From Chlorobiota bacterium (GTDB lineage Bacteria > Bacteroidota > Ignavibacteria > Kapaibacteriales > UBA961), in the NCBI GenBank assembly GCA_039810485.1, contig JBDHXA010000004.1, forward strand, positions 11,198 to 75,197: a stretch of 64,000 nt of DNA. Reading direction: 5' to 3'. This document shows positions 1-30,241 of the stretch, in pieces. Position 1 is the stretch's first letter. The number at the start of each line of letters is the position of its first letter. The position numbers and the translations under genes were made by a program. Under the pieces are notes generated by a model that saw only the letters and a list, made by a program, of their open reading frames with translations, made no database searches and was not told the DNA's origin.

Positions 1-29
1 AGTGCGCTACCGGGCTGCGCTACACGCCG
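1..29 (-). tRNA. tRNA 5' part, probably tRNA-Pro (truncated by window edge)
   Basis: Reverse complement reads CGGCGTGTAGCGCAGCCCGGTAGCGCACT, an acceptor stem plus D-arm typical of bacterial tRNA-Pro. The anticodon lies outside the window. Confidence 0.8.
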
Positions 30-41
30 TTTACGAAAACA

Positions 42-49
42 CAAAATTA
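42..49 (-). promoter_or_regulatory. Bacteroidota-type -7 promoter element (TAATTTTG) for the tRNA
   Basis: Minus strand TAATTTTG matches TAnnTTTG, 12 nt upstream of the tRNA 5' end. The same motif precedes tRNA-Ala and queE. Confidence 0.55.
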
Positions 50-350
50 CGGCTTTTTTGTTGATATTTTACAGAATTTCTTGCAACATTAAAGGAAGCA
101 TCCATGAGCCCACTCCGAAAAGTCAGTTACAAAATCACAGATTTTCGTGTGTAAAATTGCACTCTTGTAATAGTTTTCAAAAAAACTTAAAAAAAACGGT
201 AAAATATGCTGATACACGAATATTATACAAGGAGCAGGGCATCGTTTAAAAAAAAGAATAATGTGAGTAAATAAATGCAACTTTGATAATTTATGAAAAA
301 ATGTCTAAATGTATTTTTTATACTTAACGGCAGCATTATAATTTGCCTAG

Positions 351-380
351 TAAAAAGCCGTTCGATCGAACGGCTTTTTA
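351..380. terminator. Perfect 30-bp palindrome, probable bidirectional intrinsic terminator at the end of the cassette array
   Basis: TAAAAAGCCGTTCGATCGAACGGCTTTTTA, with a T-run after the stem on both strands. Confidence 0.7.
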
Positions 381-409
381 ATGATATTTTACTCAAACAA
401 CTATAGTTT

Positions 410-501
410 CTACGGCTGCACAACCGCCTTAGCTACACTGCGTTTGCCGCCAGATGCCGCTTCGACAAAATACACGCCTGCCGGCCAGCAGACTGTGGAA
501 A
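410..501 (-). repeat. T9SS CTD-tail repeat copy 1 (orphan gene-end remnant)
   Basis: Encodes STVCWPAGVYFVEAASGGKRSVAKAVVQP*. Near-identical DNA at 4931-5021, 9816-9895 and 14111-14182. Confidence 0.9.
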
Positions 502-519
502 AAATATCATCGTCGTCCC

Positions 520-550
520 TCGCGGCGGGCGCAACATACGCCCGCCGCGA
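520..550. other. GC-rich 12-bp hairpin just downstream of the lipoprotein stop
   Basis: TCGCGGCGGGCG-caacata-CGCCCGCCGCGA, with no adjacent U-tract. Confidence 0.6.
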
Positions 551-558
551 TACAAAGG

Positions 559-1563
559 TTATAACCAATGGATAGGAATGGAGGTTACCTCACCGTAAAT
601 TAACTTCGAGTTATACTGATACGTTGGAGGTTCTGGGCTGATAGGATTGAGAATATAGCGATAATAGATGCTCCAGATAGGTACTATGTGGATAAATAGG
701 TTCTTACCACTCTGTTTAACAATACTATTGATGTTGTGAATTGAAAACTCGTTGTAGTTTTTTGCCGCTGTCGAAACAACGTAATATTTCCTTGTGCCTT
801 GATCAGTGCCGTATCCTTTCGGGTTCCCCCAAAAACCAATCTTCTCCCATTCGTTATCGCTAATAATCGGCTCAACTGCTTTAGGTAGATTGTTTTGGTC
901 GAATGTGGCGTGTTGTGTAATACAAGCGTAGTAGCCCACATTCAGAAAATTCTTTGTATAACTAAACGGATGATCAACAGCAAATTCTATTTCCGCACCG
1001 AAGGTATAGACAGTATCTGCGCGGATTTCTTTTATTGTGTTGTGATCCCAAACAGTATCAACCATGATTTTCTCAATGCCCGACGCTTGAGCATTCTTAA
1101 CATAACATCGTGCTGGGGCTTCGTACAAATATATGAAATTATAGATTCCATCTTTCGCATATCCGGTTGTATCAGCTATGATAATGGATAAACGAGACGT
1201 ATCAAGACCGTTATTGTGTTGATTGTCAAGAATTACAGTTTCATAGCCGGTGCGAGTGACTTTAACGGTGAACACCCCTGAATCAACCGCTGTGATTGCG
1301 AAGTTTCCATCCTTGTCGGTCATCGCCGATAAACTCGTACCCACTATTTCTACATTAGTTCCGGACATATCACTCCAAACAATGGGAGGAATTTGTTTTT
1401 GCTTTTGCTCAAAATTGGCAATAAGCCGTACATTTCCAACATAAACACCCGTGCCGTTTGTTTGCGGATTGTTGGGTTTTGTGGGTATTGTTTCTTCTGT
1501 TTTACAAGAGTAAATGAAGAAACAGAGAGATGCAAACGCAAGTGTGGACGCTAAATGTTTCAT
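559..1563 (-). CDS. Lipoprotein with carboxypeptidase-regulatory-like (CarboxypepD_reg) domain; partner of fibre A
   Basis: Lipobox-like FFIYS-C; motif TDKDGNFAITAVDSGVFTVKVTRTGYET; AAGGA SD upstream; paralog of 9904-10875. Confidence 0.8.
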   Translation of the reverse strand: MKHLASTLAFASLCFFIYSCKTEETIPTKPNNPQTNGTGVYVGNVRLIANFEQKQKQIPPIVWSDMSGTNVEIVGTSLSAMTDKDGNFAITAVDSGVFTVKVTRTGYETVILDNQHNNGLDTSRLSIIIADTTGYAKDGIYNFIYLYEAPARCYVKNAQASGIEKIMVDTVWDHNTIKEIRADTVYTFGAEIEFAVDHPFSYTKNFLNVGYYACITQHATFDQNNLPKAVEPIISDNEWEKIGFWGNPKGYGTDQGTRKYYVVSTAAKNYNEFSIHNINSIVKQSGKNLFIHIVPIWSIYYRYILNPISPEPPTYQYNSKLIYGEVTSIPIHWL

Positions 1564-1580
1564 GGTTGTTTTCCTTTGGA

Positions 1581-4500
1581 TTAGTGGATGACAATGAATT
1601 TTTTGGAGGCAACGATTTTTCCGCTTGTAAATATTGAATAGACGTACACTCCTGTTTCAAAATCCTTTGCTGAAATAGAAATTTGTACGGGGCTACCTTT
1701 TATTAGCGAAATTCGTTGGAGTACGATGTTCTGTGATAAGGAAGAAATGAGTAACTCAGGCGAAGAACCAGCTACTTTTTCGGGGATATAATAGGTAATT
1801 GCAGTAACATCTGAGAATGGATTGGGGTTGTTTTGCTCAAGCAAAATATCTTGTTCACCATCGAGCGGGATTTGCTTTTCTGCTTCAAGCCGGGTTATTT
1901 TATCATGAAAGTTTGTTACAATAAGCGATAATGAATCATTTTGAGATTTTAGTTCATTAACGTGCCTATTCAATAAAGAGTCGCCATGTTTTTGCAAGTT
2001 GTCAAGTTCTTTTATAGAATTCACAAGGAGGTAAAACAAGCCGTTAGGATTAAAAGTCATTAAGGATTCCTTTTCGCACACAAATTCTGCTGGTTCGATC
2101 AACCATTTTTTTGCAGGTCGAAAGATTGAGCTGTCCTTTAAGATATAATGCCCATTCTCGTCCTTTTGAGTCGGGTCAGCTACCTTCATTACAATCGTGT
2201 CAACAGCATCAGTTTCATATCTCTTTTCTTCTTTAAGTAGAACTGTGCGCACTATTGTGTCTTCGCTAACCATATACGGTAAAATTTCTTGGATATTCTG
2301 GGCAATTATTCCGATTTCTATATTGTTAGTTGCTCCAATGCCCATTTTCCCATTGTAGCGAAACGTGACTGGCTTAATTCTCCGAATTTTCTCCAAACCA
2401 TCATTAAATGGTTCTACGTCTTTTTTGTAGCGTACATCCGAAGCAACACGCCATGTAGCTCCGCCCTGACTTTTTATTGCGTCGCCATAAACATTGAGGA
2501 GAATATTCGTGTTCATGTAGCCGTAATTCGGGTGAGTGCTATTATTGGGGGTTTCCGGTGTCACTGTACCAGTACCGCCAATGACTACTTTTTCTTGAAC
2601 TGATAGGTCTACATCATTTTCTGCTATTCCTTGTGGCGTATTCCATATAACCACCGTATTAGGATTATTGGAATTATTCACATCCGCCATAGTAACACTT
2701 AGCGCTTCTTGTGGCGAGGCGGTGCCGATGCCAACCCTGTTCTGCACCGCTAGATCGCATTCAACAATAGGGACAGCCTGTACTGCCTGTGTGATCCAAC
2801 TGCTGCCGATAATCGCGCCTTTGTAAGTAGTATTTAGTGCGAAAGTACCCTGTGGAGTGTTTGTTCCTATGCCTATTCGGCCAAAGTTCTCGTCGGCACT
2901 ACTACATCCGACAAACAGCGTGGGTATGGTCTTATCTGGTGTTCCGCCTGTATCATAGCCGATTGCGAGTGAAAGAGGTAAATCGTTGTGTATATTTGTT
3001 CCTATAGCTCCGGCAAAATACCCGCCATCTATAACTTTGACGCCGTAGCCGATACATAACGAACCGTTTGTTTCTGCCCAATTGTATAGCCCGAGCGCAG
3101 TAGCATTATCGTTGCTTGCCGTGTTATATCTGCCAATTACGCCTGAAAAATTTCCGCTTACGGTATTTTGTCCGCCAATAGCGAATGAATGTGAACCAGA
3201 TACGGTATTGCCGTTGCCGATTGCAGCCGAGTTGGAATTTGATGCCTCATTGTGCGCTCCCATTGCTAGTGAATTTTCTGCCAATGCACGGCATTTGAAC
3301 CCATAAGCGTGTGCGGAATATCCGTCGGCTCGATTAGTATAACCGATGGCGACTGCATCTTCGCCTATGGCGCGATTCGCGTGCCCAATAGTTACCGCCC
3401 CATGCGTTGCCGAATGTGAAAGATTGTTCATGCCGATAGCGATATCATGCTCATTACGTGCGCGGGAGTTATAACCAAAAGCAAATGAATTATATCCGAT
3501 GTGCCCGTGATTCCAGCCGGTTGTTTTATCGAAACTCGGCTCGGGGTCGTTTGCGCCGTCTCCGCCGCCACCGGGATAGGTTGCAGCGATTACCCCCGCC
3601 CGAAACGCCGCCTTTTCGGGTATCCACATCAAGCGTGTTCCTGCGCCGCTTGTCGGGGTTGCACCCGTCGTGCCATCGAAAAGAACTGACCCGTCCGTTA
3701 CTTGAAAACGCGCCGTAGGACCCTCGTTATTCACGCCCACATTGCCGTTGCCCAAAAACGACATACGCGAAATGGGTACTTCTAAACCAGCAGGACTTTC
3801 ATACACAGTCGAACTTAGCTGACTCACACCGCTGCGAATATGGAACGAACCCGGATAGCCGTTCCATGCCTCAAGCCACCATGCACGGGCGGGAATTTGC
3901 TCGCAGGTAAGCGGCACCGGCGGATCGCCGAATTGGTATGTGCCTGTGGCGGCATAAAACCGAATAGAAGGATTTGCGGTATAGCCCGTTGTACCCGGCG
4001 GCGCGTTGTTGCTGAACGAGATTTTGGGGTACTCGCAGTTCCACGAGTCGAAGTTAATATCGAACTTTCCATACGGCGAGTGCGTCCCGACGCCTACTTG
4101 ACCGCTTGGCAAAATAGTAAAGCGTTCAATGTCCTGAAGGTCGCCGGGCTGCAAACTTAAGGGATTAGCGGGCGGCGGTGTAGTGGCAAAGCGGATATAG
4201 CCAGTAGTACAACGATTGGCAACAATAATGTCACCCGCCTTGATGTCGGTTTGCAGCACAAGGTCTTTGACGGTGGTTTGGTACGAGCCGAAGAAATCGC
4301 GGCAATAGGAGTACATCGTGCGGTTGTAGCTTGAAGTAATGAGCGAAAGGTGCGCCATAAATTCAGGCGCGAAGGCATCATCGGCAGATGAATGCCAACT
4401 TAGCCGCAGCGTAGGGTCGGAAACATTGCCGATTGAGCCAACGCCATGGATGTTGAGCAATCGCCCTGGATTAGAAGCTGCGCCTATGCCAACATTGCCG

Positions 4501-4694
4501 ACTGCAGGCCATGGGTTTGAATTATTCTGTGCGCAAATCTCTGCAAACGGCGTTGCAAGCATCATAGCAACAACGATCATAACTGCCTTGCAGAAATACT
4601 TGTTACAACGAACAACTTGTCGAGAGAGAGAGAGAGAGAGTTTGCTTCCGGCTTCTCTCCCGTAGGGAGAGGTTCGGGATTGTCTGCGCCGCAT
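1581..4694 (-). CDS. Tail-fibre/adhesin-like protein A with peptidase S74 intramolecular chaperone and T9SS CTD (start uncertain: 4694, 4580, or 4731 after slippage)
   Basis: Signal peptide ending AEICA-Q; GNVGIG/GRIGIGTNTP repeats; YadA-like AIAIG/SFAIG repeats; SDVRYKKD...IGIIAQ...SIKEL S74 motif; coiled coil; LEQNNPNPF...GVYVYSI...KKFIVIH CTD. Confidence 0.85.
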   Translation of the reverse strand: MRRRQSRTSPYGREAGSKLSLSLSRQVVRCNKYFCKAVMIVVAMMLATPFAEICAQNNSNPWPAVGNVGIGAASNPGRLLNIHGVGSIGNVSDPTLRLSWHSSADDAFAPEFMAHLSLITSSYNRTMYSYCRDFFGSYQTTVKDLVLQTDIKAGDIIVANRCTTGYIRFATTPPPANPLSLQPGDLQDIERFTILPSGQVGVGTHSPYGKFDINFDSWNCEYPKISFSNNAPPGTTGYTANPSIRFYAATGTYQFGDPPVPLTCEQIPARAWWLEAWNGYPGSFHIRSGVSQLSSTVYESPAGLEVPISRMSFLGNGNVGVNNEGPTARFQVTDGSVLFDGTTGATPTSGAGTRLMWIPEKAAFRAGVIAATYPGGGGDGANDPEPSFDKTTGWNHGHIGYNSFAFGYNSRARNEHDIAIGMNNLSHSATHGAVTIGHANRAIGEDAVAIGYTNRADGYSAHAYGFKCRALAENSLAMGAHNEASNSNSAAIGNGNTVSGSHSFAIGGQNTVSGNFSGVIGRYNTASNDNATALGLYNWAETNGSLCIGYGVKVIDGGYFAGAIGTNIHNDLPLSLAIGYDTGGTPDKTIPTLFVGCSSADENFGRIGIGTNTPQGTFALNTTYKGAIIGSSWITQAVQAVPIVECDLAVQNRVGIGTASPQEALSVTMADVNNSNNPNTVVIWNTPQGIAENDVDLSVQEKVVIGGTGTVTPETPNNSTHPNYGYMNTNILLNVYGDAIKSQGGATWRVASDVRYKKDVEPFNDGLEKIRRIKPVTFRYNGKMGIGATNNIEIGIIAQNIQEILPYMVSEDTIVRTVLLKEEKRYETDAVDTIVMKVADPTQKDENGHYILKDSSIFRPAKKWLIEPAEFVCEKESLMTFNPNGLFYLLVNSIKELDNLQKHGDSLLNRHVNELKSQNDSLSLIVTNFHDKITRLEAEKQIPLDGEQDILLEQNNPNPFSDVTAITYYIPEKVAGSSPELLISSLSQNIVLQRISLIKGSPVQISISAKDFETGVYVYSIFTSGKIVASKKFIVIH

Positions 4695-5010
4695 GGCTGT
4701 GAATGCGGCAGTTTAGAGTGCGTGTACGCATAGTGTGCCTCCGAAATAGGATGAAAAAAAATAAATGTATAATACGGCTTTTGTTTCGGCACTGTTAAGT
4801 TTTGTTCTGCGGCTAATTTATAGAGAAATTCTAAATTTACCAAATTCTGTCTTGATTTTTTTTCATCATTATAGTAGCACTAATTATTGGAAAACGTATC
4901 ACAGTTCTTACGATTTTTCTGGGCAATATGCTACCGAAGTACAACCGCCTTAGCTACACTGCGTTTGCCGCCAGATGCCGCTTCGACAAAATACACGCCT
5001 GCCGGCCAGC
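3604..5010. repeat. About 1.4 kb direct repeat shared with 8472-9895 (leader plus 5' third of fibre gene)
   Basis: Near-identical DNA at an offset of 4868 in the coding part. The shadow ORFs 3824-4072/8692-8940 and 3840-4160/8708-9028 have identical translations. Confidence 0.95.
4622..4640 (-). repeat. (CT)9C microsatellite in the leader of fibre A
   Basis: G(AG)9 on the + strand, between the SD-led ATG at 4731 and the signal-peptide codons. Confidence 0.95.
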
Positions 5011-6514
5011 AGACTGTGGAAATTTCGCTGCCAGTGCCTGAATAGAGCAATCTGCCGAATACGTCGCGCACAGTAACAACGGCATTGACAGCGCAATGAA
5101 CTGTAAAAGATTCCGAGGTGGGATTTGGAAAGAGAGACAGTTCGGAATAAGTGGCAGGTATTTCGGCTGAAAGGGTTATCGGAATGCCTTTCAGACCGGT
5201 AGGATTAAAGATGACGCCTGCATGAGATCCGTGCTGACCGAAGGCAATCCAGATATTGTCGTTGCAATCTGCCACAAGACCCGTAATGATATCATCAAGC
5301 GGAGCGTTTGAAGTATTGTACTCCGTCCATTGTGTGCCGTCGTACTGAAAAAGCTTGCCTACAGAGCCGACCCAGATATTGTTTTTGCTGTCGACTTCCA
5401 CTGCCGAAACGACGGAGAGAGAAGGAAAATCAACCGAAGTCCACACCGAGCCATCAAATACCGAAGCGTGAACGGGTTTTGAGCCGTGTATGCACCATAC
5501 TTTGCCTTGACGATCGCAGAATATTCCCCAAAACCAGTCATTGCCAAAGGATGATTTCGGAAAAATTTCCGATGTAGCACCATTAAGACGCAAAACGCAT
5601 CTGTAATTATTTGTTGCTATTAGCGTCCAGATAGAGCCGGCGGAGTCAATGCAGATTTTCGGCATTTCATCTAATCTTTCTTCTTCGCTGTTTTTAGCCG
5701 AATACATCTTCTGCCATTGTCCTCCAGAAAAACGATATATTGCGACATTATTGCTGTCGTCTACTGCTTTAAGAGCAGGCAAAAGTCCGTTGCTGTCAAG
5801 AGCAAAATCAATCTGATTACCGTGGAGATTAAGACCAGTTTGAGATGACCAAACAGTTGTCAAATTATTTTTGAAGCGATATATGCTGCCGTTGCTGCTC
5901 GCCCACAATGTTCCTTCCTTGCCGAGTTTGTATCGTGCAAAACCGTGATCATCATAAAAGCCGGGCGCATATAATGTTTGCGAGTTCCATTCGCCTTTTT
6001 CAAAGGTGTTGAGCCGGAGTTTACCCCCATTAAGCTGCTCAATACCAATAACGGCGCCACTATTTCCGCGAATTATTCTATTGCCCCATCGGTCTGCGTC
6101 GGAGTTAACAACCTTCCACTTCCAAACAGGATTGTTAGAGATATGGAGAATGCATTGAGCCGTGCTTATGAGTTGGCCGTTTGTGCCGGTAACGATAATA
6201 ATGTATGTGCCGGTATCGGTCGTGGATTGAGGATATTTTGTAAATGTTATTGGAGTATATGGTTGGTTAATTGCGCCGAAGTCAGCATTCAGCGATGTGC
6301 TTCCGTTGGGGTACGTCGTTTGTTTTGTAAGAAACACCGTTGCATCAAAACCGCCGGAGGTTTGTACCGATACGGTAAATGTTGCGCTGTCTCCGACTGC
6401 AATTGTTTCTTCATTCGGAGTAATTGAGAGAGTAAATGATTGCGCAGAACTGCCTGAAATTGAGGCAAATGCAACCGAGATGGCGGCAGCGAGGAATACA
6501 AGTGTTGTTTTCAT
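4931..6514 (-). CDS. Secreted beta-propeller protein (two-component-regulator-propeller-like repeats) with N-terminal Ig-like domain and T9SS CTD; partner of fibre B
   Basis: Signal peptide SSA-Q; repeats such as IDSAGSIW, VDSKNNIWVG, FDGSVW and YDGTQW; C-terminal LFPNPT...PAGVYFVEAASGGKRSVAKAVVLR; GGAG SD. Confidence 0.8.
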   Translation of the reverse strand: MKTTLVFLAAAISVAFASISGSSAQSFTLSITPNEETIAVGDSATFTVSVQTSGGFDATVFLTKQTTYPNGSTSLNADFGAINQPYTPITFTKYPQSTTDTGTYIIIVTGTNGQLISTAQCILHISNNPVWKWKVVNSDADRWGNRIIRGNSGAVIGIEQLNGGKLRLNTFEKGEWNSQTLYAPGFYDDHGFARYKLGKEGTLWASSNGSIYRFKNNLTTVWSSQTGLNLHGNQIDFALDSNGLLPALKAVDDSNNVAIYRFSGGQWQKMYSAKNSEEERLDEMPKICIDSAGSIWTLIATNNYRCVLRLNGATSEIFPKSSFGNDWFWGIFCDRQGKVWCIHGSKPVHASVFDGSVWTSVDFPSLSVVSAVEVDSKNNIWVGSVGKLFQYDGTQWTEYNTSNAPLDDIITGLVADCNDNIWIAFGQHGSHAGVIFNPTGLKGIPITLSAEIPATYSELSLFPNPTSESFTVHCAVNAVVTVRDVFGRLLYSGTGSEISTVCWPAGVYFVEAASGGKRSVAKAVVLR

Positions 6515-6532
6515 GATTGTGTTCTCCCTGTG

Positions 6533-9448
6533 TTATTTGATGACAATGAATTTTTTGGAGGCGAAAACTTTGCTGTTGATGCTAATCGAATAGACGAATA
6601 CGCCTGTATAGAGATTAGCTGACGAAATAGTTATTTGAGTGGGAATACCCTTTGTCAGAATATAGTGTTGCAGCACAGGAGATTGAGTGGTAGGGGCAAT
6701 GAGCAATTCTGCATCGCCCTGCACACTGTCGGGAATGTAGTAAGTAATAGTTGTTGATTCAGCGAAAGGATTCGGATTATTTTGCTCCAAAATTATATCG
6801 GCGGCATCGCTGACGGCAATTTGATTCTGTGCTTCAAGTCGGGCAAGCCGCTCTTCATGGTTTTTCAGGATTACGCGCAGAGAGTCATTACTTGATGACA
6901 ATGCCTCATGCTTTGCGGTATGAGTATCATATTTTTCTTGTAATGTGCTGATTTCAATTTGTTGTAGCGAGTCGGTTGCTGCAAGTGTAGCGACTTTCGT
7001 TGCCAGTAAGGCAACTTTTTCTTGCAATGCGAAGGTCTCTGCAATCCGCGTCGAATCCAACTCCTTGATGGAGTTAATGATGGTGTATGTTAAGGCACTA
7101 GGATTATAGATGAGTATCGGTGATGACTCTGTGGCAAATTCAGCAGGTTCGATCACCCACTTTTTTATGGGCCGAAAAGTTACTGTGTCTCTGTATATGT
7201 AATGCCCATGCTCGTCCTTTACAGTAGTATCTGCAATTTGCCTCACGGTCTTCTCGACAGTATCAATTTGGTAGCGCCGTTCCATTTTGGTACGAACAAC
7301 ATGAAGTAGTGTATCCGCCCGCACTGTATATGGGAAAATTTCTTGCATATCTTGTGCAATAACCCCAATGCTCTCCTTATCATCATTGAATCCGAGTCTT
7401 TCATTGTATCTGAAACGAACGGGGTTTATTCGTTTGAGTAAATCCAAGCCATCCCGATATGGATGAATATCTTTTTTGTAGCGTGCATCAGAAGGAATAT
7501 CCCATGTTGCTGTTCCTGAGTTGCCGAGTTTCACTGCATCTCCCCAAACCTGAAGTAAACTAGTTTGTCCGGATCGTGCGCCATTGATATAACTTGGCGC
7601 GAGCGGAGTACCTGTTCCGCCAATAACAACCGACTGTTCGATAATTACTCCTATCGGATTTCCCGTACCTCCAACAGCAGGAACCGCATTACTCCCTCCC
7701 CAACCAAAGCAAACTGTGCCATCGACGCCAAGGCTACAAGCGGGGGATGCTGTGCCAATTCCAACCTTTTTTTCTACTATGAGATTAGTATTAGCATCAC
7801 CGGGTGTTTGCGAGCCACTCCAACCAACTGCAATTGAGCCGTTTACTCCGAGAGTAGAAAGCGGATTAGTTGTACCTATTCCTACATTGCCAAATGAGCC
7901 ACTACTTCCATCTCCGCCGCTGATAAATAGAGTGGGTGTATCGCTGTTGAATCCGACCATTAGTGAATTCGAGATGCTATTGGTCAATCGTTTGCTAAAA
8001 GGATCAATAGAGGTTACCCCTATTCCAGTGCCTATAATCATTGCGCCGGGCTTAGTAGCATTTAAGAAAGCACCAATACCAACACTATGGTACTTATCAA
8101 AAAATCTCGTTCTTGTGGTATCCCCAGTGCGCACATATTCACCTATTGAATAGGACATAGAATTAAACACTTCTGATTGGTGTCCGAATGCTGCACTAGA
8201 CAACCCGCGAACATGGTTTCTCCAGCCGGTTACAAAAGCATCATTACCTGAAACAGTGTCTTCATGCCCGAATGCAAATGAGCAATGGCCAGCCCCTTGG
8301 TCATATCCATCACCGTTAATATATGAATAATGTCCAAAAGCTCCTGATGCCCCACCACGTGCGTAGGTGTTAAGCCCTATTGCAACAGAGTAAAGTCCAA
8401 TATTGGAATTATCCCAATAACCGGAAGCATCTGGAAGTGATATAGTATCGTCGTTCAATTTCCCTGCCCTGAACGCCGCCCTTTCCGGTATCCACATCAA
8501 GCGTGTTCCTGCGCCGCTTGTCGGGGTTGCGCCAACTGTGCCATCGAAAAGAACTGACCCGTCCGTTACTTGAAAACGCGCCGTAGGACTCTCGTTATTC
8601 ACGCCCACATTGCCGTTTCCCAAAAACGACATACGCGAAATGGGTACTTCTAAACCAGCAGGACTTTCATACACAGTCGAACTTAGCTGACTCACACCGC
8701 TGCGAATATGGAACGAACCCGGATAGCCGTTCCATGCCTCAAGCCACCATGCACGGGCGGGAATTTGCTCGCAGGTAAGCGGCACCGGCGGATCGCCGAA
8801 TTGGTATGTGCCTGTGGCGGCATAAAACCGAATAGAAGGATTTGCGGTATAGCCCGTTGTACCCGGCGGCGCGTTGTTGCTGAACGAGATTTTGGGGTAC
8901 TCGCAGTTCCACGAGTCGAAGTTAATATCGAACTTTCCATACGGCGAGTGCGTCCCGACGCCTACTTGACCGCTTGGCAAAATAGTAAAGCGTTCAATGT
9001 CCTGAAGGTCGCCGGGCTGCAAACTTAAGGGATTAGCGGGCGGCGGTGTAGTGGCAAAGCGGATATAGCCAGTAGTACAACGATTGGCAACAATAATGTC
9101 ACCCGCCTTGATGTCGGTTTGCAGCACAAGGTCTTTGACGGTGGTTTGGTACGAGCCGAAGAAATCGCGGCAATAGGAGTACATCGTGCGGTTGTAGCTT
9201 GAAGTAATGAGCGAAAGGTGCGCCATAAATTCAGGCGCGAAGGCATCATCGGCAGATGAATGCCAACTTAGCCGCAGCGTAGGGTCGGAAACATTGCCGA
9301 TTGAGCCAACGCCATGGATGTTGAGCAATCGCCCTGGATTAGAAGCTGCGCCTATGCCAACATTGCCGACTACAGGCCATGGGTTTGAATTATTCTGTGC
9401 ACAAATCTCTGCAAACGGCGTTGCAAACATCATAGCAACAACAATCAT
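6533..9448 (-). CDS. Tail-fibre/adhesin-like protein B with S74 chaperone and T9SS CTD
   Basis: First ~330 aa nearly identical to fibre A; SDARYKKD S74 motif; long coiled coil; LEQNNPNPF...KKFIVIK CTD. Confidence 0.85.
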   Translation of the reverse strand: MIVVAMMFATPFAEICAQNNSNPWPVVGNVGIGAASNPGRLLNIHGVGSIGNVSDPTLRLSWHSSADDAFAPEFMAHLSLITSSYNRTMYSYCRDFFGSYQTTVKDLVLQTDIKAGDIIVANRCTTGYIRFATTPPPANPLSLQPGDLQDIERFTILPSGQVGVGTHSPYGKFDINFDSWNCEYPKISFSNNAPPGTTGYTANPSIRFYAATGTYQFGDPPVPLTCEQIPARAWWLEAWNGYPGSFHIRSGVSQLSSTVYESPAGLEVPISRMSFLGNGNVGVNNESPTARFQVTDGSVLFDGTVGATPTSGAGTRLMWIPERAAFRAGKLNDDTISLPDASGYWDNSNIGLYSVAIGLNTYARGGASGAFGHYSYINGDGYDQGAGHCSFAFGHEDTVSGNDAFVTGWRNHVRGLSSAAFGHQSEVFNSMSYSIGEYVRTGDTTRTRFFDKYHSVGIGAFLNATKPGAMIIGTGIGVTSIDPFSKRLTNSISNSLMVGFNSDTPTLFISGGDGSSGSFGNVGIGTTNPLSTLGVNGSIAVGWSGSQTPGDANTNLIVEKKVGIGTASPACSLGVDGTVCFGWGGSNAVPAVGGTGNPIGVIIEQSVVIGGTGTPLAPSYINGARSGQTSLLQVWGDAVKLGNSGTATWDIPSDARYKKDIHPYRDGLDLLKRINPVRFRYNERLGFNDDKESIGVIAQDMQEIFPYTVRADTLLHVVRTKMERRYQIDTVEKTVRQIADTTVKDEHGHYIYRDTVTFRPIKKWVIEPAEFATESSPILIYNPSALTYTIINSIKELDSTRIAETFALQEKVALLATKVATLAATDSLQQIEISTLQEKYDTHTAKHEALSSSNDSLRVILKNHEERLARLEAQNQIAVSDAADIILEQNNPNPFAESTTITYYIPDSVQGDAELLIAPTTQSPVLQHYILTKGIPTQITISSANLYTGVFVYSISINSKVFASKKFIVIK

Positions 9449-9612
9449 AACTGCCTTGCAGAAATACTTGTTACAACGAATAACTTGTCGAGAGAGAGAG
9501 AGAGAGAGTGTGTGTGTGAGTGTGCTTCCGGCTTCTCTCCCGTAGGGAGAGGTTCGGGATTGTCTGCGCCGCGCGGCTGTGAACGCGGCAGCTTAGAGTG
9601 TGTGTTACGCAT
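9445..9612 (-). CDS. SD-led leader ORF (55 aa) spanning the microsatellite; its stop overlaps the fibre B ATG (ATGA)
   Basis: GGAGG-cacacg-ATG; MRNTHSKLPRSQPRGADNPEPLPTGEKPEAHSHTHSLSLSLDKLFVVTSISARQL*; identical copy at 13740-13907. Confidence 0.55.
   Translation of the reverse strand: MRNTHSKLPRSQPRGADNPEPLPTGEKPEAHSHTHSLSLSLDKLFVVTSISARQL
9490..9524 (-). repeat. Compound (CA)n/(CT)9 microsatellite in the leader of fibre B
   Basis: + strand G(AG)9 (TG)5 AG TGTG; 12 nt longer than the equivalent region of copy A. Confidence 0.95.
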
Positions 9613-9815
9613 CGTGTGCCTCCGAAATAGGATACAAAAAAACATAAATGTATAATACGGCTTTTGTTTTCGGCGCTGTTAAGTTTTGTTCTGTGGCTAA
9701 TTTATAGAGAAATTCTAAATTTACCAAATTCTGTCTTGATTTTTTTCTCATCATTATAGTAACACTAATTATTGGAAAACGTATCACAGTTCTTACGATT
9801 TTTCTGGGCAATACG

Positions 9816-9895
9816 CTACCGAAACACAACCGCCTTAGCTACACTGCGTTTGCCGCCAGATGCCGCTTCGACAAAATACACGCCTGCCGGCCAGC
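9816..9895 (-). repeat. T9SS CTD-tail repeat copy 3 (orphan remnant, 8 nt after the lipoprotein stop)
   Basis: Encodes WPAGVYFVEAASGGKRSVAKAVVFR* and is out of frame with the lipoprotein. Confidence 0.9.
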
Positions 9896-9903
9896 CCACC
9901 TTG

Positions 9904-10875
9904 TTATCGCCATTGAATTTGATATGATTGGGGCGCACCGATTATCCAGTCGATAATAATGCTTTCAGCTGGCCCTTTTGCGGCATCGCCACGCACTCTA
10001 CGTAAACCTCGCCAAATTGGAGTAAAGTGTAAATATAATGCAACTCCTTGCCGAAGAGACAAATTCCTTGCTTTGGCATACTCTTTTAGTGATAAGCCAA
10101 TCTTGAAGTATCGTTTTGTTTTATCCCCATTGTCAGGATATGAAGGATATTTATCTTCAAGACAGAAAAAGCCATTCGAATCATATTGCCATGAGCGTGA
10201 AAATAAAACCGTATTTGGAATTTTATTCGCGGATAACGTAGATTGTTCGTTGATGCAAGCCATGTATCCTACAGGTACTTCTTCACGACGATTGGTAAAG
10301 TATGACTCTATAGATGTGGTTATGTTGGCTGTAAAATCGTATAGAGTATCTCGTTTGCTCTCTGTTTTTACGCCGTGGTCATCTACCGAATCCACACGAA
10401 TAATCTCTTTAACAGTAGCTAGAGCACTAACTACCTGCACGGTTGGAGGTAATTCGGCAAGGCGCGGTATAAGAGATGTTGGAATACTTAGCAATGTATC
10501 GGAATATATAGGTCCCATTTGAAGAGTATCTTCTCCTTTAACAACTACCCTATACGCTGTCATAGTATCAAAGCCGGGCGCAGTAAATTGAATGGCGTAT
10601 TTGCCTGAGTCCAGATAGTTTAATTGCCATTTACCCATACTGTCGGTTGTGGTGGAAGCACCTGTTCCGAGAACTGTTACGAGTATTCCGCTATTATCGG
10701 AGTTCTCATATTTTTTGTCGAAAGTATAAAGTAATGCAGAACCTTTAAGAACACTTCTATCGGAAGTTTTCTTTATAGAATCAATTGGACTTGGTTTTGT
10801 TGGGATTGTGTCCTGTTGCATGCAACCAACAAAAATGACAATACTACTGACTGCAAGAAAAGCAAAGTTTTTCAT
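9904..10875 (-). CDS. Lipoprotein with carboxypeptidase-regulatory-like domain; partner of fibre C
   Basis: Lipobox IFVG-C; TTDSMGKWQLNYLDSGKYAIQFTAPGFDT; shares TIPTKP, RxDTxY.F, VGYxACI and LHxxPIW motifs with 559-1563; AGGAG SD. Confidence 0.8.
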   Translation of the reverse strand: MKNFAFLAVSSIVIFVGCMQQDTIPTKPSPIDSIKKTSDRSVLKGSALLYTFDKKYENSDNSGILVTVLGTGASTTTDSMGKWQLNYLDSGKYAIQFTAPGFDTMTAYRVVVKGEDTLQMGPIYSDTLLSIPTSLIPRLAELPPTVQVVSALATVKEIIRVDSVDDHGVKTESKRDTLYDFTANITTSIESYFTNRREEVPVGYMACINEQSTLSANKIPNTVLFSRSWQYDSNGFFCLEDKYPSYPDNGDKTKRYFKIGLSLKEYAKARNLSLRQGVALYLHFTPIWRGLRRVRGDAAKGPAESIIIDWIIGAPQSYQIQWR

Positions 10876-10890
10876 GATGTTCTCCTAAAA

Positions 10891-13743
10891 TTAACGTATG
10901 AGGATCATTTTTTTCGAAGCAAGGACTTTGCCGTTGGCAAGTACCGAGTAGACATATATGCCTATTGTCATATCTTGTGCAGAGATAACAACCTGTGAAG
11001 GAATGCCTTTGATGCAGTCGAACCGCTTGATAACCGATGATTGGTTGGAAGTAGCAACAACAATCTCGGCATTTCCTTGTACCTTTTCAGGTATAAAGTA
11101 TGTGATAGTCGAATTGCCGGCAAAGGGATTGGGAGTATTCTGCTCTAACAGAACATCTATTGCCTCATCAAGCGGCATTTGTTGCTGTGATTCGAGTCGA
11201 GCGACTCGCTGTTCTAATTTTTTCGCAACAAAATGCAGTGAATCTATAGTTTGCTGAAGGATATCTATAGCTGCCGATGCCTCTTTTTTTTGTGCAGTTA
11301 TAGCAGCATCAATTTCTTTAATGGCGTTGACCAAAACATACTTCAGGGCATTTGAGTTGTATGTGAGTATCGCGGCTGATTCAAGTCTGCTTTCGGCAGG
11401 CTCGGTCATCATTCTCTTAACAGGTCGCAGAACTATCGAATCTTTTGTGCCAAAATGACCTATCCCTTCACGCTTTGTGGCATCCTTTACTTGCACAACT
11501 ACTGTATCCACAGCATCAACTTCGTATCGCTTTTCATGCTTGGTAATTATTGTTCGAGAGAGGGTGTCTTCATTGATAGTGTAGGGAAGAATTCTCTGCA
11601 TTTCTTGTGCAAGAATCCCGACTTGTTTATCAAAACTTTCAAATCCAAATTCTCCGTTATATTTGAACCAAATCGGATTTATCATTCGGATTTTATCGAG
11701 GCCGTCTCGAAAAGGCGCAATATCTTTTTTATAACGCTCATCCGAAGCAATGACCCAGGTGTCGGTGCCGTCTGACTTAATAGCTCGACCATTGACATGT
11801 AGTAATAGGTCTTGTGGTCGCGTCGTATAAGTTTCGCTCGGATCTAGTAGAGAATTTCGCCCTATTACAACTTTCTCCTCCACCATGAGGTCGATGCTTG
11901 GATCGGCAATTGGACCAGTGGGATTATTCCAAATAATTACCCTGTTATCATCAGTAATTTGATCAGTAGAACTCCTACTCGTAACACTCAGCGCTTCATG
12001 AGGTGAATACGTTCCAATACCGACATTTTTTTCGGCAACGAGGGAGATTTTAGACGCATTAGGATGCGGATCATCTAATGCTTGTGAGCCGGACCATCCT
12101 ATGACTACATTACCGTTAACGCCAAGTGTATTTTCTGGATATAGTGTGCCTATTCCAACACGGGGGACCGGACGCGATGCTTGCCCGTGGTAGCTTGCAT
12201 TTGCATAAGAAATATATGCACCCCAAGCATCGTTCACACCCATCAAAATTGAGTTTTCGTTGTTATTTTCCAATGGACCGATACCCATGCACATAGAGTT
12301 TTCTGCATTTGCGGTACAGCCATATCCGAATGTGTAAGAGGTTGCTTTCTTTGAACTGTTAAATGCGCCTATTGCCATGGCATTTTTTGCAAAGGCATTG
12401 CATTCGCGCCCAAAAATTTGGGCGCACTGCCCGTATGCTCTGTTGCTATAACCCATCGCGAAGGCATCTTCCCCTGATGCGCGATTCGCGTGGCCGATAG
12501 CAACTGCGCCGTGTTTGTCGCCTGAATTTGATAAATTATTGAAGCCGAGAGCAATGTCGTAAGAACCGCTCGCTCTGGAGCTATACCCAAAAGCAAAGGA
12601 ATTAAAACCAATATAAGCATCATCCCAACTTTTTGTTTTATCAAAATTAGGTTCCGGGTCGTGGTTGCCGTCGCTTGCTGTTCCCACAATCCCCGCCCGA
12701 AACGCTGCCTTTTCCGGTATCCACATTAGGCGTGTTCCAGCACCTATTTCATCAAACTGCCAATCTGTGTTGTCAGGATCGTTATTCAGATCTTTCCATC
12801 TTTTCGGCGTAGAACCGGAAGCTCCCTCGAACAGCAATGCTCCATCAGTTACATGCAGCTTTGCAGACGGCCATTCCTGATTTATCCCCACATCGCCATT
12901 GCTCAGGATTTTCATGCGCGTTACCGGTTTTTCCGTGCCGATGCGGTTTGTATAGTCGCTGCTGTTTTCCGTAGAAACGCCCGCGCGGAAGCGTAGCGAG
13001 CTTACACCGGGAATATCATGATAGGCGCCGTTTTCCAGCCACCATGCCCAAGAACTGACATTAGGACAATCTAAATCACTGCCGCTGGCTCGGTATAAGC
13101 GAAGGGAGGGATCGGACGTCGAACTTGTCTTGCTAACATTAACGGCTGATGATAATGTTATTTTCGGCATATTGCAATTCCACCCCCGAAGATTGATGTC
13201 GAACATCCCAGCCGGTTGGGATGTATTTATTCCTATTTTACCTTCAGGCGTCATGGTAAAACGTTCTATGTTGGCTCCCGACGCCGGTTCGGTTGTGGCA
13301 AATCGCAAAAAGCCAGTTGAGCTGCGAGTGGTCAGAATCAAATCACCATAGCCGCCCGCTGCTATTGGCGGTTCTCCGGCTTGCAGAATCAAATCGCCAT
13401 TTGTTGCATTTTGCACGGGCAATGTATATCCTCCGCCTATAATAGGACGTATCAGAGAATAATCGTAACATCCGCCGTACATGATTGTGTTATCAGGCGT
13501 AAGCAACGAGAGATGGCCGGCATAGAGAAAACCTTCTGCATTTCCGCTGGCGCCATAGCTCAATCGAATTGTGGGGTCGCCGCCATTGGGATATATAATT
13601 GACGGGGCGGCATGCACGTTGAGCTTCTTCTGAGGATTGTTTGTTCCAATGCCAATGTATGCAGCAACCGGCCATGGAAATGTATTATTCTGTGCACAAA
13701 TCTCTGCAAACGGCGTTGCAAACATCATAGCAACAACAATCAT
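10891..13743 (-). CDS. Tail-fibre/adhesin-like protein C with S74 chaperone and T9SS CTD
   Basis: Same signal peptide as B but divergent N-terminal domain; YadA-like repeats; SDERYKKD S74 motif; LEQNTPNPF...KKMILIR CTD. Confidence 0.85.
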   Translation of the reverse strand: MIVVAMMFATPFAEICAQNNTFPWPVAAYIGIGTNNPQKKLNVHAAPSIIYPNGGDPTIRLSYGASGNAEGFLYAGHLSLLTPDNTIMYGGCYDYSLIRPIIGGGYTLPVQNATNGDLILQAGEPPIAAGGYGDLILTTRSSTGFLRFATTEPASGANIERFTMTPEGKIGINTSQPAGMFDINLRGWNCNMPKITLSSAVNVSKTSSTSDPSLRLYRASGSDLDCPNVSSWAWWLENGAYHDIPGVSSLRFRAGVSTENSSDYTNRIGTEKPVTRMKILSNGDVGINQEWPSAKLHVTDGALLFEGASGSTPKRWKDLNNDPDNTDWQFDEIGAGTRLMWIPEKAAFRAGIVGTASDGNHDPEPNFDKTKSWDDAYIGFNSFAFGYSSRASGSYDIALGFNNLSNSGDKHGAVAIGHANRASGEDAFAMGYSNRAYGQCAQIFGRECNAFAKNAMAIGAFNSSKKATSYTFGYGCTANAENSMCMGIGPLENNNENSILMGVNDAWGAYISYANASYHGQASRPVPRVGIGTLYPENTLGVNGNVVIGWSGSQALDDPHPNASKISLVAEKNVGIGTYSPHEALSVTSRSSTDQITDDNRVIIWNNPTGPIADPSIDLMVEEKVVIGRNSLLDPSETYTTRPQDLLLHVNGRAIKSDGTDTWVIASDERYKKDIAPFRDGLDKIRMINPIWFKYNGEFGFESFDKQVGILAQEMQRILPYTINEDTLSRTIITKHEKRYEVDAVDTVVVQVKDATKREGIGHFGTKDSIVLRPVKRMMTEPAESRLESAAILTYNSNALKYVLVNAIKEIDAAITAQKKEASAAIDILQQTIDSLHFVAKKLEQRVARLESQQQMPLDEAIDVLLEQNTPNPFAGNSTITYFIPEKVQGNAEIVVATSNQSSVIKRFDCIKGIPSQVVISAQDMTIGIYVYSVLANGKVLASKKMILIR

Positions 13744-13907
13744 AACTGCCTTGCAGAAATACTTGTTACAACGAATAACTTGTCGAGAGAGAGAGAGAGA
13801 GAGTGTGTGTGTGAGTGTGCTTCCGGCTTCTCTCCCGTAGGGAGAGGTTCGGGATTGTCTGCGCCGCGCGGCTGTGAACGCGGCAGCTTAGAGTGTGTGT
13901 TACGCAT
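13740..13907 (-). CDS. SD-led leader ORF (55 aa) overlapping the fibre C start
   Basis: Identical to 9445-9612, with the same ATGA overlap. Confidence 0.55.
   Translation of the reverse strand: MRNTHSKLPRSQPRGADNPEPLPTGEKPEAHSHTHSLSLSLDKLFVVTSISARQL
13785..13819 (-). repeat. Compound (CA)n/(CT)9 microsatellite in the leader of fibre C
   Basis: + strand G(AG)9 (TG)5 AG TGTG, identical to copy B. Confidence 0.95.
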
Positions 13908-14048
13908 CGTGTGCCTCCGAAATAGGATACAAAAAAACATAAATGTATAATACGGCTTTTGTTTTCGGTGCTGTTAAGTTTTATTCTGCGCTTAATTTAT
14001 AGAGAAATTCTAAATTTACCAAATTCTGTCTTGATTTTTTTCTCATCA

Positions 14049-14426
14049 TTATAGTAACACTAAATTATTGGAAAACGTATCATAGTTCTTACGATTTTTC
14101 TGGGCAATATGCTGCCGAAACACAACCGACTTAGCCACACTGCGTTTGCCGCCAGATGCCGCTTCGACAAAATACACGCCTGCGGACCGACCGCTGGTAG
14201 AAATTTTGCCACCCGCACCTGCGTAGAGCAGCTTGCCGAAAATGTCGCGAACGGCAATGGTTGCACCTGCGGGCGCGGAAACATCAAAACGCTCGCTGAC
14301 AGGGTTGGGCTTTATTAGTAAATCTGAATTTAGATTTTGATTTTCTTCTGGCGGATTCATCTGATATTCGGACTTATGATTTGCGGTAAATTCTAAAATA
14401 ATGAATAAACGAGCGCAGTCAATCAA
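14049..14426 (-). pseudogene. Orphan T9SS CTD (truncated gene remnant); CTD-tail copy 4
   Basis: IKPNPVSERFDVSAPAGATIAVRDIFGKLLYAG...SAGVYFVEAASGGKRSVAKSVVFR is homologous to the end of 4931-6514. No signal peptide, and the TAG of the other copies is CAG here, giving read-through. Confidence 0.7.
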
Positions 14427-14692
14427 TAAAAATATCTGCGCGGTTTGATAATGTCAGTCAATATTAATTTAGATTTTAAATGCTGATTTACCAGCATGAC
14501 AAATCTGTAGTCTTGCATGAGGAAGAAGCAACGGAATTTGACATGTCGTCGTTATGTTGTTGAAAGCATACACCAACTGTTTTCAAAAGAAAATTCAGTC
14601 ATAGTTTGTATGGTTTCTGCATAATCCTGAATTTTGCGAGTTCCATTTACAATATTCCTTTCATTCTGTAATATTCTATTCCAACGAACTCC

Positions 14693-17600
14693 ATGACAAG
14701 CAAATTATTGCGTCAAATTTTATTTGTTCTTATTGCGCTCTTTTTCTCAAACACTGCGTTTCTATCGGCGCAAAAAACTGTGCAGACGACAGCAATAGAC
14801 GGGTTGCGCGACAAAGTTGCATCATATTTCGCCATAACAAATGTTACATTAATCCCCGAACCAAATACAATCATTCAGAATGCCGTTGTCATTATTCGCA
14901 ACGGCATAATTGAGGCGGCAGGCGCAAATATTGCCATTCCGTCTGGAGTTTCTGTGCGCGATGGCAAAGGATTGTGGGTGTATGCTGCTTTTATCGAGCC
15001 GTATTCTGAATTGGGAATTGGTAAAAAAACTGTGCAAAAAACCGGTTTTTCTGCTGAATTCGATGACGATCAAATTGATCAGCCGCTGCCTGCGAATAGA
15101 GGTGCGCGCTATTGGAACGAGGCAATACATCCCGAAAATCGTGCCGCCGAATCGGCTTCATTCGACAATGAAACCGCTGAATCGCTTCTTAATGCCGGCT
15201 TTGCGCTAGCGCAAATCAACTCTTCCGACGGCATAATGCGCGGTTCGTCAGCAATTGTGTTTGCAAGAGCCGGGAACGCCAATCAAATCATTGCCAAAGC
15301 CGATGCAAGCCACGTTCTTTCTTTTCGCAAGGGAAGCTCGCGAAATTCATATCCAAGCTCGATGATGGGAAGTATTGCGCTCATTCGTCAGGCATTTTCA
15401 GATGCATTATGGTATTCGGCTGCGCAATTCGCCTATCACCAAAATCCTTTATTGGCAATTCCGGAAACAAATCTTTCGTTAGAAGCTCTTTCTCAGGCGA
15501 TAGCGGCTAAAAAACCATGGATTTTCCATACTAACAATGAAAACACTCTGCTTCGTGGAAGCAGAATTGCTCAAGAGTTCAATCTGCCCTTTGTGTATTT
15601 GGGAAGCGGTCGCGAATATCGCCGCCTTTCAAGCATAGCGCCGTTGAAACCGCGGATAATACTGCCGGTAAATTTTCCATCTGCGCCCGATGTGTCAACT
15701 CCGCAAAAAGCTTTAGATGTTTCATTAGCCGATCTCAAGTACTGGGATGCCGCGCCTGCCAATCCAATGCGGCTAGATTCTGTCGGCATACGATTTGCCT
15801 TCACTTCCTACGGACTTAAAGACAAAGCCGAATTTTTGAAAAATATTCGCAAAGCTGTGCAATATGGCCTCTCTCCTGCAAAAGCCCTTGCCTCTTTGAC
15901 GACGATTTCGGCTGAATTTTGTGGAATTAGCGACAATGCAGGAACTATTAAAGCCGGGAAATGGGCAAATCTATTAGTTGCCGACGGAGATATTTTCGAT
16001 GCCAAAACTACAATTCGATCTGTTTATGTAGCAGGCGAGGAAAACGTTGTGAATCGGATGCCGGAAAATGACGTAAGAGGTTATTGGACATATAATATCG
16101 AAAACATGCCTTCGCTTCGTGTAGCACTGACGGGAAAATCTTCCGCACCCGATGTTGAAATCAAAAAAGATACACTGAAACTTAATGCCAAATTTTCGAC
16201 AAATGAACGACAAATAGCGCTTTCTTTTACCGGCGATCCGCTCGGCATTGCTGGTGTCCTTCGACTATCCGGTTGGATGGATACTATTGCAGGGAAAGGA
16301 ATTGCACTATTTCCAGATGGAGCGCAGCGCCGTTGGACAGCAGTTCGAGACAGCGCTTATATATTCAATCCGGCCGTTGCGGACACACAAATTTTACATC
16401 CGGCATTCGGCATATTGCAGCCCGATGGACCTTATGGCTTCGAGCATATTCCGCAACAGAAAAGCGTGCTTTTTAAAAATGCCACAGTTTGGACAAGCGC
16501 GAAAGATGGCATACTCCAAAATACCGATGTTTTAATTTCCGACGGTAAAATTGCGGCAATTGGAAAAAAAATTGCTAAATCTGCAGACACTATAATTGAT
16601 GCGACAGGGCTTCATCTCACCGCTGGAATAGTAGACGAACATTCGCACATTGCCATCGAAGGCGGCGTAAATGAAGGGACTCATGCAATAACTCCGGAAG
16701 TTCGTATCGGCGATGTTATAGACCCTGACGACATGATTATTTACCGCCAGCTCTCGTCAGGCGTAACAAGCTCTCACACTTTGCACGGCTCGGCAAATCC
16801 CATTGGCGGACAAGTTCAATTTATAAAACTTCGCTGGGGCGCTGATTCCGAAGGATTGAAATTCAACGACGTTCCTCCCACAATTAAATTCGCATTAGGC
16901 GAAAATGTGAAACAATCTAATTGGGGCGAGCATTTTACAACACGCTATCCTCAAACGCGCATGGGAGTTAAAGAAATCATGGAAGATGCTTTTCGCGCCG
17001 CGCTCGAGTACGAAAAAGAACAAAAAGTCGGAAAGCGGAAAGATGGGCTGCCATTTCGACGCGATTATCAGCTTGATGCTTTGCTTGAAGTACTACATGG
17101 AAAGCGATTAGTGCATTGCCACTCGTATGTGCAAAGTGAAATCCTTATGTTGATTCGACTAGCCGAAGAATTTGGCTTCAAAATTCAAACGTTCACTCAT
17201 GTGCTCGAAGGGTATAAAGTTGCGCGAGAAATAGCTCTGCATGGAGCAAGTGCCTCTACATTTGCTGATTGGTGGGCATACAAATTTGAAGTTTATGATG
17301 CTATTCCGCAAAATGCCGCTATAATGCACGAACAAGGAGTGCTGACCTCTATTAACAGCGACGATGGCGAAATGGGCAGACGGCTAAATCAAGAAGCGGC
17401 TAAGTCAATAAAATATGGAGGTTTATCCGAAGATGAAGCTATTAAGCTATGCACGATAAATCCCGCCAAGCAAATGAAATCTGACTCACGCATCGGTTCA
17501 ATAGAAATAGGCAAAGATGCCGATCTTGCCCTATGGACAGGCAATCCTCTTTCTAATTTTTCTCGCGTAGAGCAAACTTATATTGAGGGACGAAAGTATT

Positions 17601-17788: not shown

Positions 17789-18013
17789 TATTCATCCATA
17801 GATTATTTTCGGCGCATCTTCATCAAACAACTTGATGCATTTGCAGAGATAACAACAAACTATCTACAACTACCGCATGATAGAACTGCTTATTCTTTGC
17901 GTTGCGGCTGCCAATGGGCTAATCAGCATAATTTAACTATATTTGCCGTTCTTTAACATTAAATTTTACCGCAATTATTGCCACTTTGCAAAGCAATTAT
18001 TGCTTACTGAAGA

Positions 18014-27991: not shown

Positions 27992-28178
27992 TGAAAGGAA
28001 TTAATGAGGCGCAAGTGCCAAAATATATTGTAATTATGCAAGCAACGATTCAAAATTATCAAAATTGACGGCTATCATAAATTTAAATGCTTTCATAATG
28101 TAACATTGCACGCTCCAAACACTTGAGCAAAGACATACTGATTTACTCAATTTAATCGTATAATAATCAAACCGCATC

Positions 28179-30191: not shown

Positions 30192-30241
30192 TAATGGTGC
30201 TGCGGCTTTGCAGTTAAATACATATCGCAAATAATTAGAAT

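Follow-up and report, generated by a model that had tools for sequence, protein, structure and literature searches.

The window (the whole stretch of 64,000 nt that was analysed) comes from an uncultured sludge bacterium and contains three neighbouring paralogous fibre genes, A, B and C. All three lie on the minus strand, as do the other features of the array whose window coordinates are given below. Counted from a downstream Met, gene A (1581..4580, ATG 4580) encodes 999 aa, gene B (6533..9448, ATG 9448) 971 aa and gene C (10891..13743) 950 aa, while their likely true starts are at 4731, 9612 and 13907, respectively. Each fibre gene is closely followed by a partner gene. As originally predicted, A and C both have a lipoprotein next to them, namely L1 (559..1563, 17 nt downstream of A) and L2 (9904..10875, 15 nt downstream of C), each a predicted lipoprotein with a CarboxypepD_reg domain; the partner of B (4931..6514, 18 nt downstream) is a T9SS type A CTD protein with propeller-like repeats. 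Among homologous loci, a lipoprotein or a T9SS-tail protein was the next gene in 11 of the 13 checked by eye, the other two comprising one locus without downstream sequence and one without a close gene. An Atlas search with L2 returned matches limited to unnamed or CarboxypepD-like clusters.

The array is surrounded by housekeeping genes. A prophage locus was considered and rejected, as none of the 30 window ORFs scanned beyond 14693 was a phage gene; the other side of the contig was read by eye. The same 30 ORFs included no recombinase. Rfam gave no match at E 0.1 over positions 1-15000, and a promoter and terminator scan upstream of B produced no signal above chance.

Domain architecture and predicted export

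Gene A encodes, in order, a signal peptide, an N-module with VGIGxxxPxxxL loops, the junction motif described below, a YadA-type beta-roll, an S74 domain, a coiled coil and a T9SS-like C-terminal domain (CTD). Gene C has its own divergent N-module, with 42% aa identity to that of A and B. The signal peptides of A, B and C end in AEICA-Q (read by eye), and a regular expression found five copies of the capping loop per protein. S74 (PF13884) scored above its cut-off in all three, with the catalytic Ser of the SDxRYKK motif encoded at 2439..2441 in A, 7490-7492 in B and 11743-11745 in C. Some 290-320 residues follow this serine, forming the coiled coil and then the T9SS-like CTD at the terminus. 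The CTD model TIGR04183 scored 18.2 bits in A, under its cut-off of 23, and did not match B or C; a PNPF...GxY...KK pattern is discernible in the C-termini of all three. SprA is present in the genome above its cut-off, and export of the fibres by the T9SS is likely.

The YadA_head Pfam model matched A, C and 64 of 88 aligned homologs, and gave no Pfam match in full-length B. No autotransporter C-terminal anchor was detected in A, B or C with Pfam and NCBIfam, and full-length trimeric autotransporter (TAA) models scored far under cut-off. A profile search with the fibres matched TAA heads, MYRF, phage tail fibres and Bdellovibrio Bd2133 (E 5e-7), and the S74 region and fibre repeats matched PHROG tail-fibre families. 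The N-module alone had no match in a PDB sequence search and only unnamed matches, at most 0.90, in the Atlas search. In a model of A residues 233-532 (pLDDT 84), the junction motif forms a hairpin of two strands; a variable loop comes next, and then a beta-roll of 14-residue repeats, which Foldseek matched to TAA heads. An AlphaFold model of full-length B built from 9 sequences was poor (pLDDT 44) and was excluded from the fold search. A metagenome scan yielded 8 loci, with L106 the sole close relative, and a first scan of genome contigs for homologs gave 44 stretches, of which none was confirmed.

The housekeeping neighbours, signal peptides and T9SS-like tail argue that A, B and C are cellular surface fibres and not phage tail fibres. 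The original prediction drew a parallel with the module shuffling of phage tail fibres; the genes here encode proteins with signal peptides, in a region whose scanned ORFs are free of phage genes. Trimerisation would be expected from the combination of S74 and beta-roll. By analogy with the Bdellovibrio fibres discussed below, self-cleavage by S74 in this arrangement would shed the sorting domain.

A shared N-module and its boundary

The N-modules of A (3594..4580) and B (8462..9448) differ at 16 of 987 nt (98.4% identity), counted from the start codon through AAFRAG, and include an exact core of 753 nt (3751-4503 in A). The likeness extends upstream through the leader and promoter to approximately 5010 and 9895 at 93%. 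The near-identity that had been predicted between 3604-4620 and 8472-9488 was thus recovered with other limits, since the block ends at 3594/8462 and runs on well upstream. At 3594, the end of AAFRAG, ungapped nucleotide identity falls from about 92% to about 25%, in agreement with the predicted abrupt divergence, and the proteins are about 40% identical beyond this point. It had also been proposed that A resembles C more than B past the junction. In sliding windows of the aa alignment, this applies for about 120 codons (50-67% against 22-33%) but hardly to the part as a whole (45% against 40%), and a clade of A, C and a sister-species gene has support of just 59/92.

The junction motif, GAGTRLMWIPxxAAFRAG, lies at 3594..3647 in A, where it is predicted to form a beta-hairpin on which the beta-roll head is based, and at 8462..8515 in B. 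In C, it was located at 12691..12744, which confirms the conserved copy expected near 12693-12745. At the protein level, the motif was found in 254 confirmed stretches, including Bacteroidota, Patescibacteria and DPANN, and seven of its residues are invariant in 88 aligned sequences. The motif and beta-roll also occur in large proteins of Patescibacteria and DPANN archaea (L038, L041, L062, L065, L071, L085, L089, L093 and others), lineages thought to attach to host cells. One fibre homolog (L145, G048:C76:75006-77141) carries an in-frame TGA soon after the junction motif and represents either a broken gene or a split form.

A comparable arrangement was observed in a sister species (G001). Two of its fibre contigs start with the same 119 nt, which also close a third contig holding the N-terminus; the two are 96.7% identical over 394 nt and then diverge at AAFRAG. 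In other assemblies of this species, both fibre genes are full length, once on a single 50-kb contig, and have 323 of 330 N-part residues in common. Across these assemblies, the C-terminal parts are 100% identical; 15 sites in the N-terminal parts show a mixture of two alleles, possibly through conversion or assembly chimerism.

Since the host genome is a 140-contig assembly, one N-module could have been pasted into two genes by the assembler. A perfect core of 753 nt edged by clustered SNPs is the expected leftover of bubble-popping, and the mixed N alleles of the sister-species assemblies point the same way. In sequencing run X1, no contig spans the array, and the shared block forms one contig that mismatches both A and B at 2 core positions; the perfect core may therefore have been polished by assembly, and the gene order rests on the assembly. 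The depth of this block contig is 26, double that of the unique flanks (13-16), which indicates two real copies. Run X1 is source-like and may be the source sample, hence not independent, and run X2 covers the region just by short low-depth pieces. In addition, the 16 differences persist at the block edges, and independent sister-species assemblies hold both full-length genes with the shared module. An artefactual origin of the A/B identity is, on this evidence, highly improbable, and the collapse named in the original prediction as its possible undoing finds no support in the read depth.

Accepting the block as real, we compared the two halves of the genes, taking N-part protein identities over the 150 residues before the motif. 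Identity in the N and C parts is 99% and 40% between A and B, and 97% and 38% between the sister-species paralogs. It is 77% and 70% between B and its G001 ortholog, and 46% and 48% between gene C and the sister C-like gene. Past the motif, the nearest relative of the second G001 gene is C (48%). In a quartet of A, B and the two G001 genes, 91 of 92 informative sites before the motif end group by species. After the motif, 173 sites are lineage-type (B with its ortholog), 57 are species-type and 41 group the third way (Fisher p 1e-44), and the switch from species to lineage grouping falls at codons 329-332. AU tests rejected the pairing of A with B in the C-terminal tree (p 2e-53) and of B with its ortholog in the N-terminal tree (p 5e-6); the separate trees that had been suggested as a check are thus incongruent. 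The pairing of gene C with the G001 C-like gene in the N-terminal tree was not rejected (p 0.07).

Wider trees, from which L150 was omitted, show that gene halves likewise pair differently in genus g4 (p 0.0003-0.006). The AAFRAG boundary was found solely in genus g1, which comprises the sister and host species. Among the three paralogs of G098, the homogenised stretch covers just 320-400 nt or so of leader (85-93% identity).

That an independent homogenisation in the sister species stops at the same point argues for recurrent concerted evolution instead of a single swap. The conversion or crossover originally proposed is retained insofar as the same N-module is joined to different C-terminal parts, but it is not one recent event. 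Nor is it probable that one ancient duplication or swap placed the N-module of B on a second gene before the species split and that purifying selection alone has maintained the likeness since. The module is 77% conserved in aa between species, as such a history would allow, and yet 61 of 64 and 52 of 54 four-fold sites are identical within the two species, against 20-21 of 48 between them, which is near saturation. Selection on the protein cannot explain this likeness; the ancient-swap account is largely refuted, and we consider it the least probable of all the alternatives weighed here. Under recurrent homogenisation, B would be the likely donor of the shared module: its two halves differ from those of its ortholog to a similar extent, so that the module appears to be its own. 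The recipient would be an A-type gene in the present genome and a C-type gene in G001.

The conversion likely ends at AAFRAG because no further homologous stretch lies between this point and the variable head. Alternatively, the motif DNA could be the crossover site of a recombinase in programmed site-specific shuffling, comparable to shufflons or invertible tail-fibre segments. The boundary does fall at the identical codon in two species, and motif DNA is 88% identical between A and C in surroundings of about 53%. Between the two species, though, just 3 of 10 silent (four-fold) sites of the motif are conserved, which argues against a special DNA crossover site, and the motif is kept as protein in loci of Bacteroidota, Patescibacteria and DPANN. 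No inverted repeats of at least 25 nt were found in 1-20000, and the scanned window ORFs, as noted, hold no recombinase. Programmed shuffling is accordingly rated as quite improbable, and the stop at AAFRAG is best read as the end of homology.

The homology upstream of the modules is organised in repeated units of about 540 nt, each comprising a CTD 3' tail, an intergenic region, a leader and a signal peptide, which are 93-96% alike across A, B and C. The unit of A (4581..5010) contains a T9SS-CTD 3' tail, the intergenic region and the leader; that of B (9449..9895) begins with an orphan CTD 3' tail (9816-9895), and that of C (13744..14327) contains an orphan whole-CTD remnant (14115-14327). 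Along its length, the unit is a patchwork, with mainly A=B distally, B=C from approximately 4790 to 4533, and then A=B again. The array ends with a fourth copy of the CTD 3' tail (419..499), located after lipoprotein L1; some 400 nt further on is the 5' end of a tRNA-Pro gene, which runs across the edge of the window. In three species (the host genome G000, G001 and G004), an orphan copy of the 3' CTD tail from the T9SS partner gene is found directly after lipoprotein genes (L022:3189-3310 in G001, L024:5599-5709 in G004). This recurrence suggests that head and partner may be exchanged as cassettes between two homology anchors.

Other traces of rearrangement were observed in the relatives. In G004, an orphan fibre C-terminal fragment and a lipoprotein gene (L024:140-1621) lie directly upstream of an intact fibre gene, as a trace of a deleted cassette. 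The flanks of the sister-species fibre genes are displaced, which indicates that the array was moved or rearranged: an esterase/OmpA/OppC block (L022:3470-7882) corresponds to window 26873-31288, 12 kb from the array in the host genome, and a T9SS gene (L023:350-3090) has its host counterpart on another contig (G000:C127). Furthermore, an integron-integrase-like recombinase followed by an AIPR-like gene (L022:8127-11194, read by eye) is located 5 kb from the G001 fibre gene.

Simple repeats in the leaders

A (CT)9 tract, a feature absent from the original prediction, is located in the leader of each fibre gene, at 4623..4640 in A, 9491..9508 in B and 13786..13803 in C. These are three of the four dinucleotide tracts of at least six units in the genome. 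Each tract lies 43 nt before the downstream Met, and each leader starts as GGAGG-N6-ATG. In A, the tract falls between the SD-led ATG 4731 (GGAGG 4738-4742) and the signal peptide. In B, it is preceded by (CA)5, the SD-led ATG is 9612, and the leader stop overlaps the downstream ATG; in C, the SD-led ATG is 13907. From these starts, A, B and C are each out of frame by one unit, while the (CT)19 tract of G001 is in frame. Both of two sister-species assemblies have (CT)19, and all three window tracts have 9 units, a constancy that counts against switching.

Similar repeats were found elsewhere in the order. Of 24 homologs with an intact 5' end, drawn non-randomly from the strongest hits in part of the 37 of 254 genomes with a match, 13 (from 9 genomes; families f1, f3 and f4) carry a non-triplet repeat between the SD-led ATG and the cleavage site. 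Loci with a missing 5' end (L021, L022, L025, L152, L158), a different family without CTD (L155-L157) and duplicate loci were left out of this tally. Seven repeat units were identified: CT, AT, CCGCAGA, ACTTCGG, ATTT, poly-G and poly-C. Nine of the repeat-bearing genes are off, three are on and one spans an assembly gap; the three G098 paralogs, with 7, 8 and 7 units, are on, off and on. The other 11 homologs comprise 2 borderline and 9 repeat-free cases, and all 6 of the repeat-free ones with a recognisable SD-ATG are in frame. For comparison, a frameshifting repeat was found in 3 of 1155 other long ORFs of the host genome and in 0 of 59 motif genes of distant taxa, an enrichment whose Fisher p of 1e-21 is overstated, as kin are not independent.

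These observations suggest that the (CT)9 tracts likely make A, B and C phase-variable. No variation of tract length within a population was seen in the run contigs, in which the repeats were skipped; reversible slipped-strand switching is a prediction. The mosaic could also be real and the repeats not be frame switches, with translation starting at the downstream Met and the tract tuning transcription, mRNA structure or coupling, or being neutral. The SD signal is little used in this genome (176 of 1150 first ATGs against 485 of 9585 internal ones), which leaves the downstream Met as a possible start. The overlap of the leader stop with the downstream ATG in both B and C fits this account, and reinitiation through coupling to that stop is possible in these two genes; A could start from the SD-less ATG 4694. 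A conserved hairpin immediately upstream of the tract and the choice of the downstream Met by gene callers are likewise compatible with it. It accounts poorly, however, for seven unrelated units, none a multiple of three, all placed between an SD-led ATG and the cleavage site, or for repeat-free homologs that are in frame throughout. Several homologs, such as those with G14 and (ATTT)15, have the tract within the hydrophobic signal region and no usable downstream start. A K or R occurs within the first 8 residues of 70 of 77 CTD-like proteins, and the downstream-Met start has none. We therefore regard repeats without a switching function as unlikely, although less so than the alternatives discussed above, and phase variation as the preferred explanation. 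As gene callers begin these genes at the downstream Met, a frameshifted state would be hidden in annotations.

The hairpin itself lies just upstream of the CT tract of B (window ~9535-9551), and likewise before the tracts of A and C. It is kept in the sister species (L023:3473-3487) with both sides of the outer pair changed, and it could tune translation or transcription.

Proposed mechanism and comparison with known systems

We assign a probability of roughly 70% to the overall reading that this locus is a chromosomal array of likely T9SS-exported trimeric adhesins, with recurrent recombination up to AAFRAG and (CT)n tracts that likely act as on/off switches. In the mechanism we propose, RecA-type gene conversion or unequal crossover would take place between the repeated upstream and N-module units, with B donating, so that promoter, leader and N-module would be repeatedly homogenised among the paralogs. 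Translation would begin at the SD-led ATG, repeat length would set the frame, and slipped-strand frameshifting at (CT)n would switch each gene on or off. The product would be exported by Sec and then by the T9SS; S74 would guide trimer folding, after which self-cleavage would remove the CTD and coiled coil together with the chaperone. The variable beta-roll and the distal helix may bind ligand, and the downstream partner would travel with its head as a cassette. The cell could thereby vary which predicted adhesive fibre is displayed.

Several elements of this reading have known counterparts. The mosaic adhesive trimers (MATs) of Bdellovibrio are described as surface-displayed trimers whose S74 self-cleaves at the serine of its SD motif and whose tips are swapped between paralogs; Bd2133 and Bd1334 have 75% in common, the N end being conserved and the C end swapped (PMC10769870). 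A beta-rich domain of ~130 aa, conserved and placed directly behind the signal peptide, is a further MAT feature. Like MATs (Caulton et al. 2024, PMC10769870), the proteins encoded by A, B and C are fibres of about 1000 aa with a signal peptide, an S74 SDxxxK motif and V-G-x-G/N-x-x-x-P-x-x-x-L loops, and they are mosaics of a conserved base and a variable distal end. Unlike MATs, they carry a coiled coil and a T9SS-like CTD after S74 as well as an internal YadA beta-roll, and their genes form a tandem array with partner genes, recurrent homogenisation at 97-99% and leader repeats. They do not qualify as MATs, as the protein does not end in S74 or an adhesive tip. A term search of the main text of the MAT paper (PMC10769870) returned no T9SS, type IX, phase variation, YadA or Bacteroid-.

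In Helicobacter pylori, CT repeats in the 5' coding region of babA, babB and babC set the genes in or out of frame, and 5' gene conversion makes chimeras and carries the repeat from one paralog to another (PMC4552749). The present array similarly combines adhesin-type paralogs, CT frameshift repeats and 5' gene conversion. It differs from the bab system, which concerns pathogen outer-membrane proteins at separate loci (PMC4552749), in that S74 fibres of environmental Bacteroidota are involved, conversion extends over some 330 codons as far as a structural boundary, and species differ in their repeat unit. With TAAs such as YadA, CbpF, BpaC and UspA1, the fibres share a left-handed beta-roll head. 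They fall outside this class, since the C-terminal beta-barrel anchor was not detected, and export would instead depend on the T9SS and folding on S74. S74, module shuffling and the division into constant proximal and variable distal parts are shared with phage tail fibres, which differ from these cellular genes with signal peptides amid housekeeping genes.

Mosaic fibres are thus already known from MATs and phages, and CT phase variation coupled to gene conversion from the bab genes. No description of the two together on an S74 fibre that has a T9SS-like tail came up in the literature searched, which excludes subscription journals and the supplementary tables of the MAT paper. A broader proposal is that Kapaibacteria possess an undescribed family of T9SS-exported, self-cleaving, MAT-like contingency-locus fibres, with at least seven convergent slipped-strand switches and with head and partner cassettes, which would recognise other cells in a predatory or epibiotic lifestyle. 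This proposal is tentative, and we consider it more doubtful than not. For T9SS biology, the arrangement raises the question of how export and anchoring would work for a trimer that removes its own sorting domain by cleavage. Repeated acquisition of switches, built from different units, by a single gene family of free-living uncultured bacteria would point to strong fluctuating selection, for example by phage, grazers or prey.

Simple repeats were also identified elsewhere in the host genome. A 7-nt repeat of 8 units (G000:C37:17523-17578) lies at the 5' end of an ORF resembling a type I restriction specificity subunit (by eye), and a second heptamer tract is present in the same restriction-like locus of C37, which could be a phase-variable restriction system. 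Other long simple repeats, including an 8-mer with 9 units, 7-mer arrays and G18 at a contig end, are located outside long ORFs (G000 C3:43014, C3:61004 and C13:44049).
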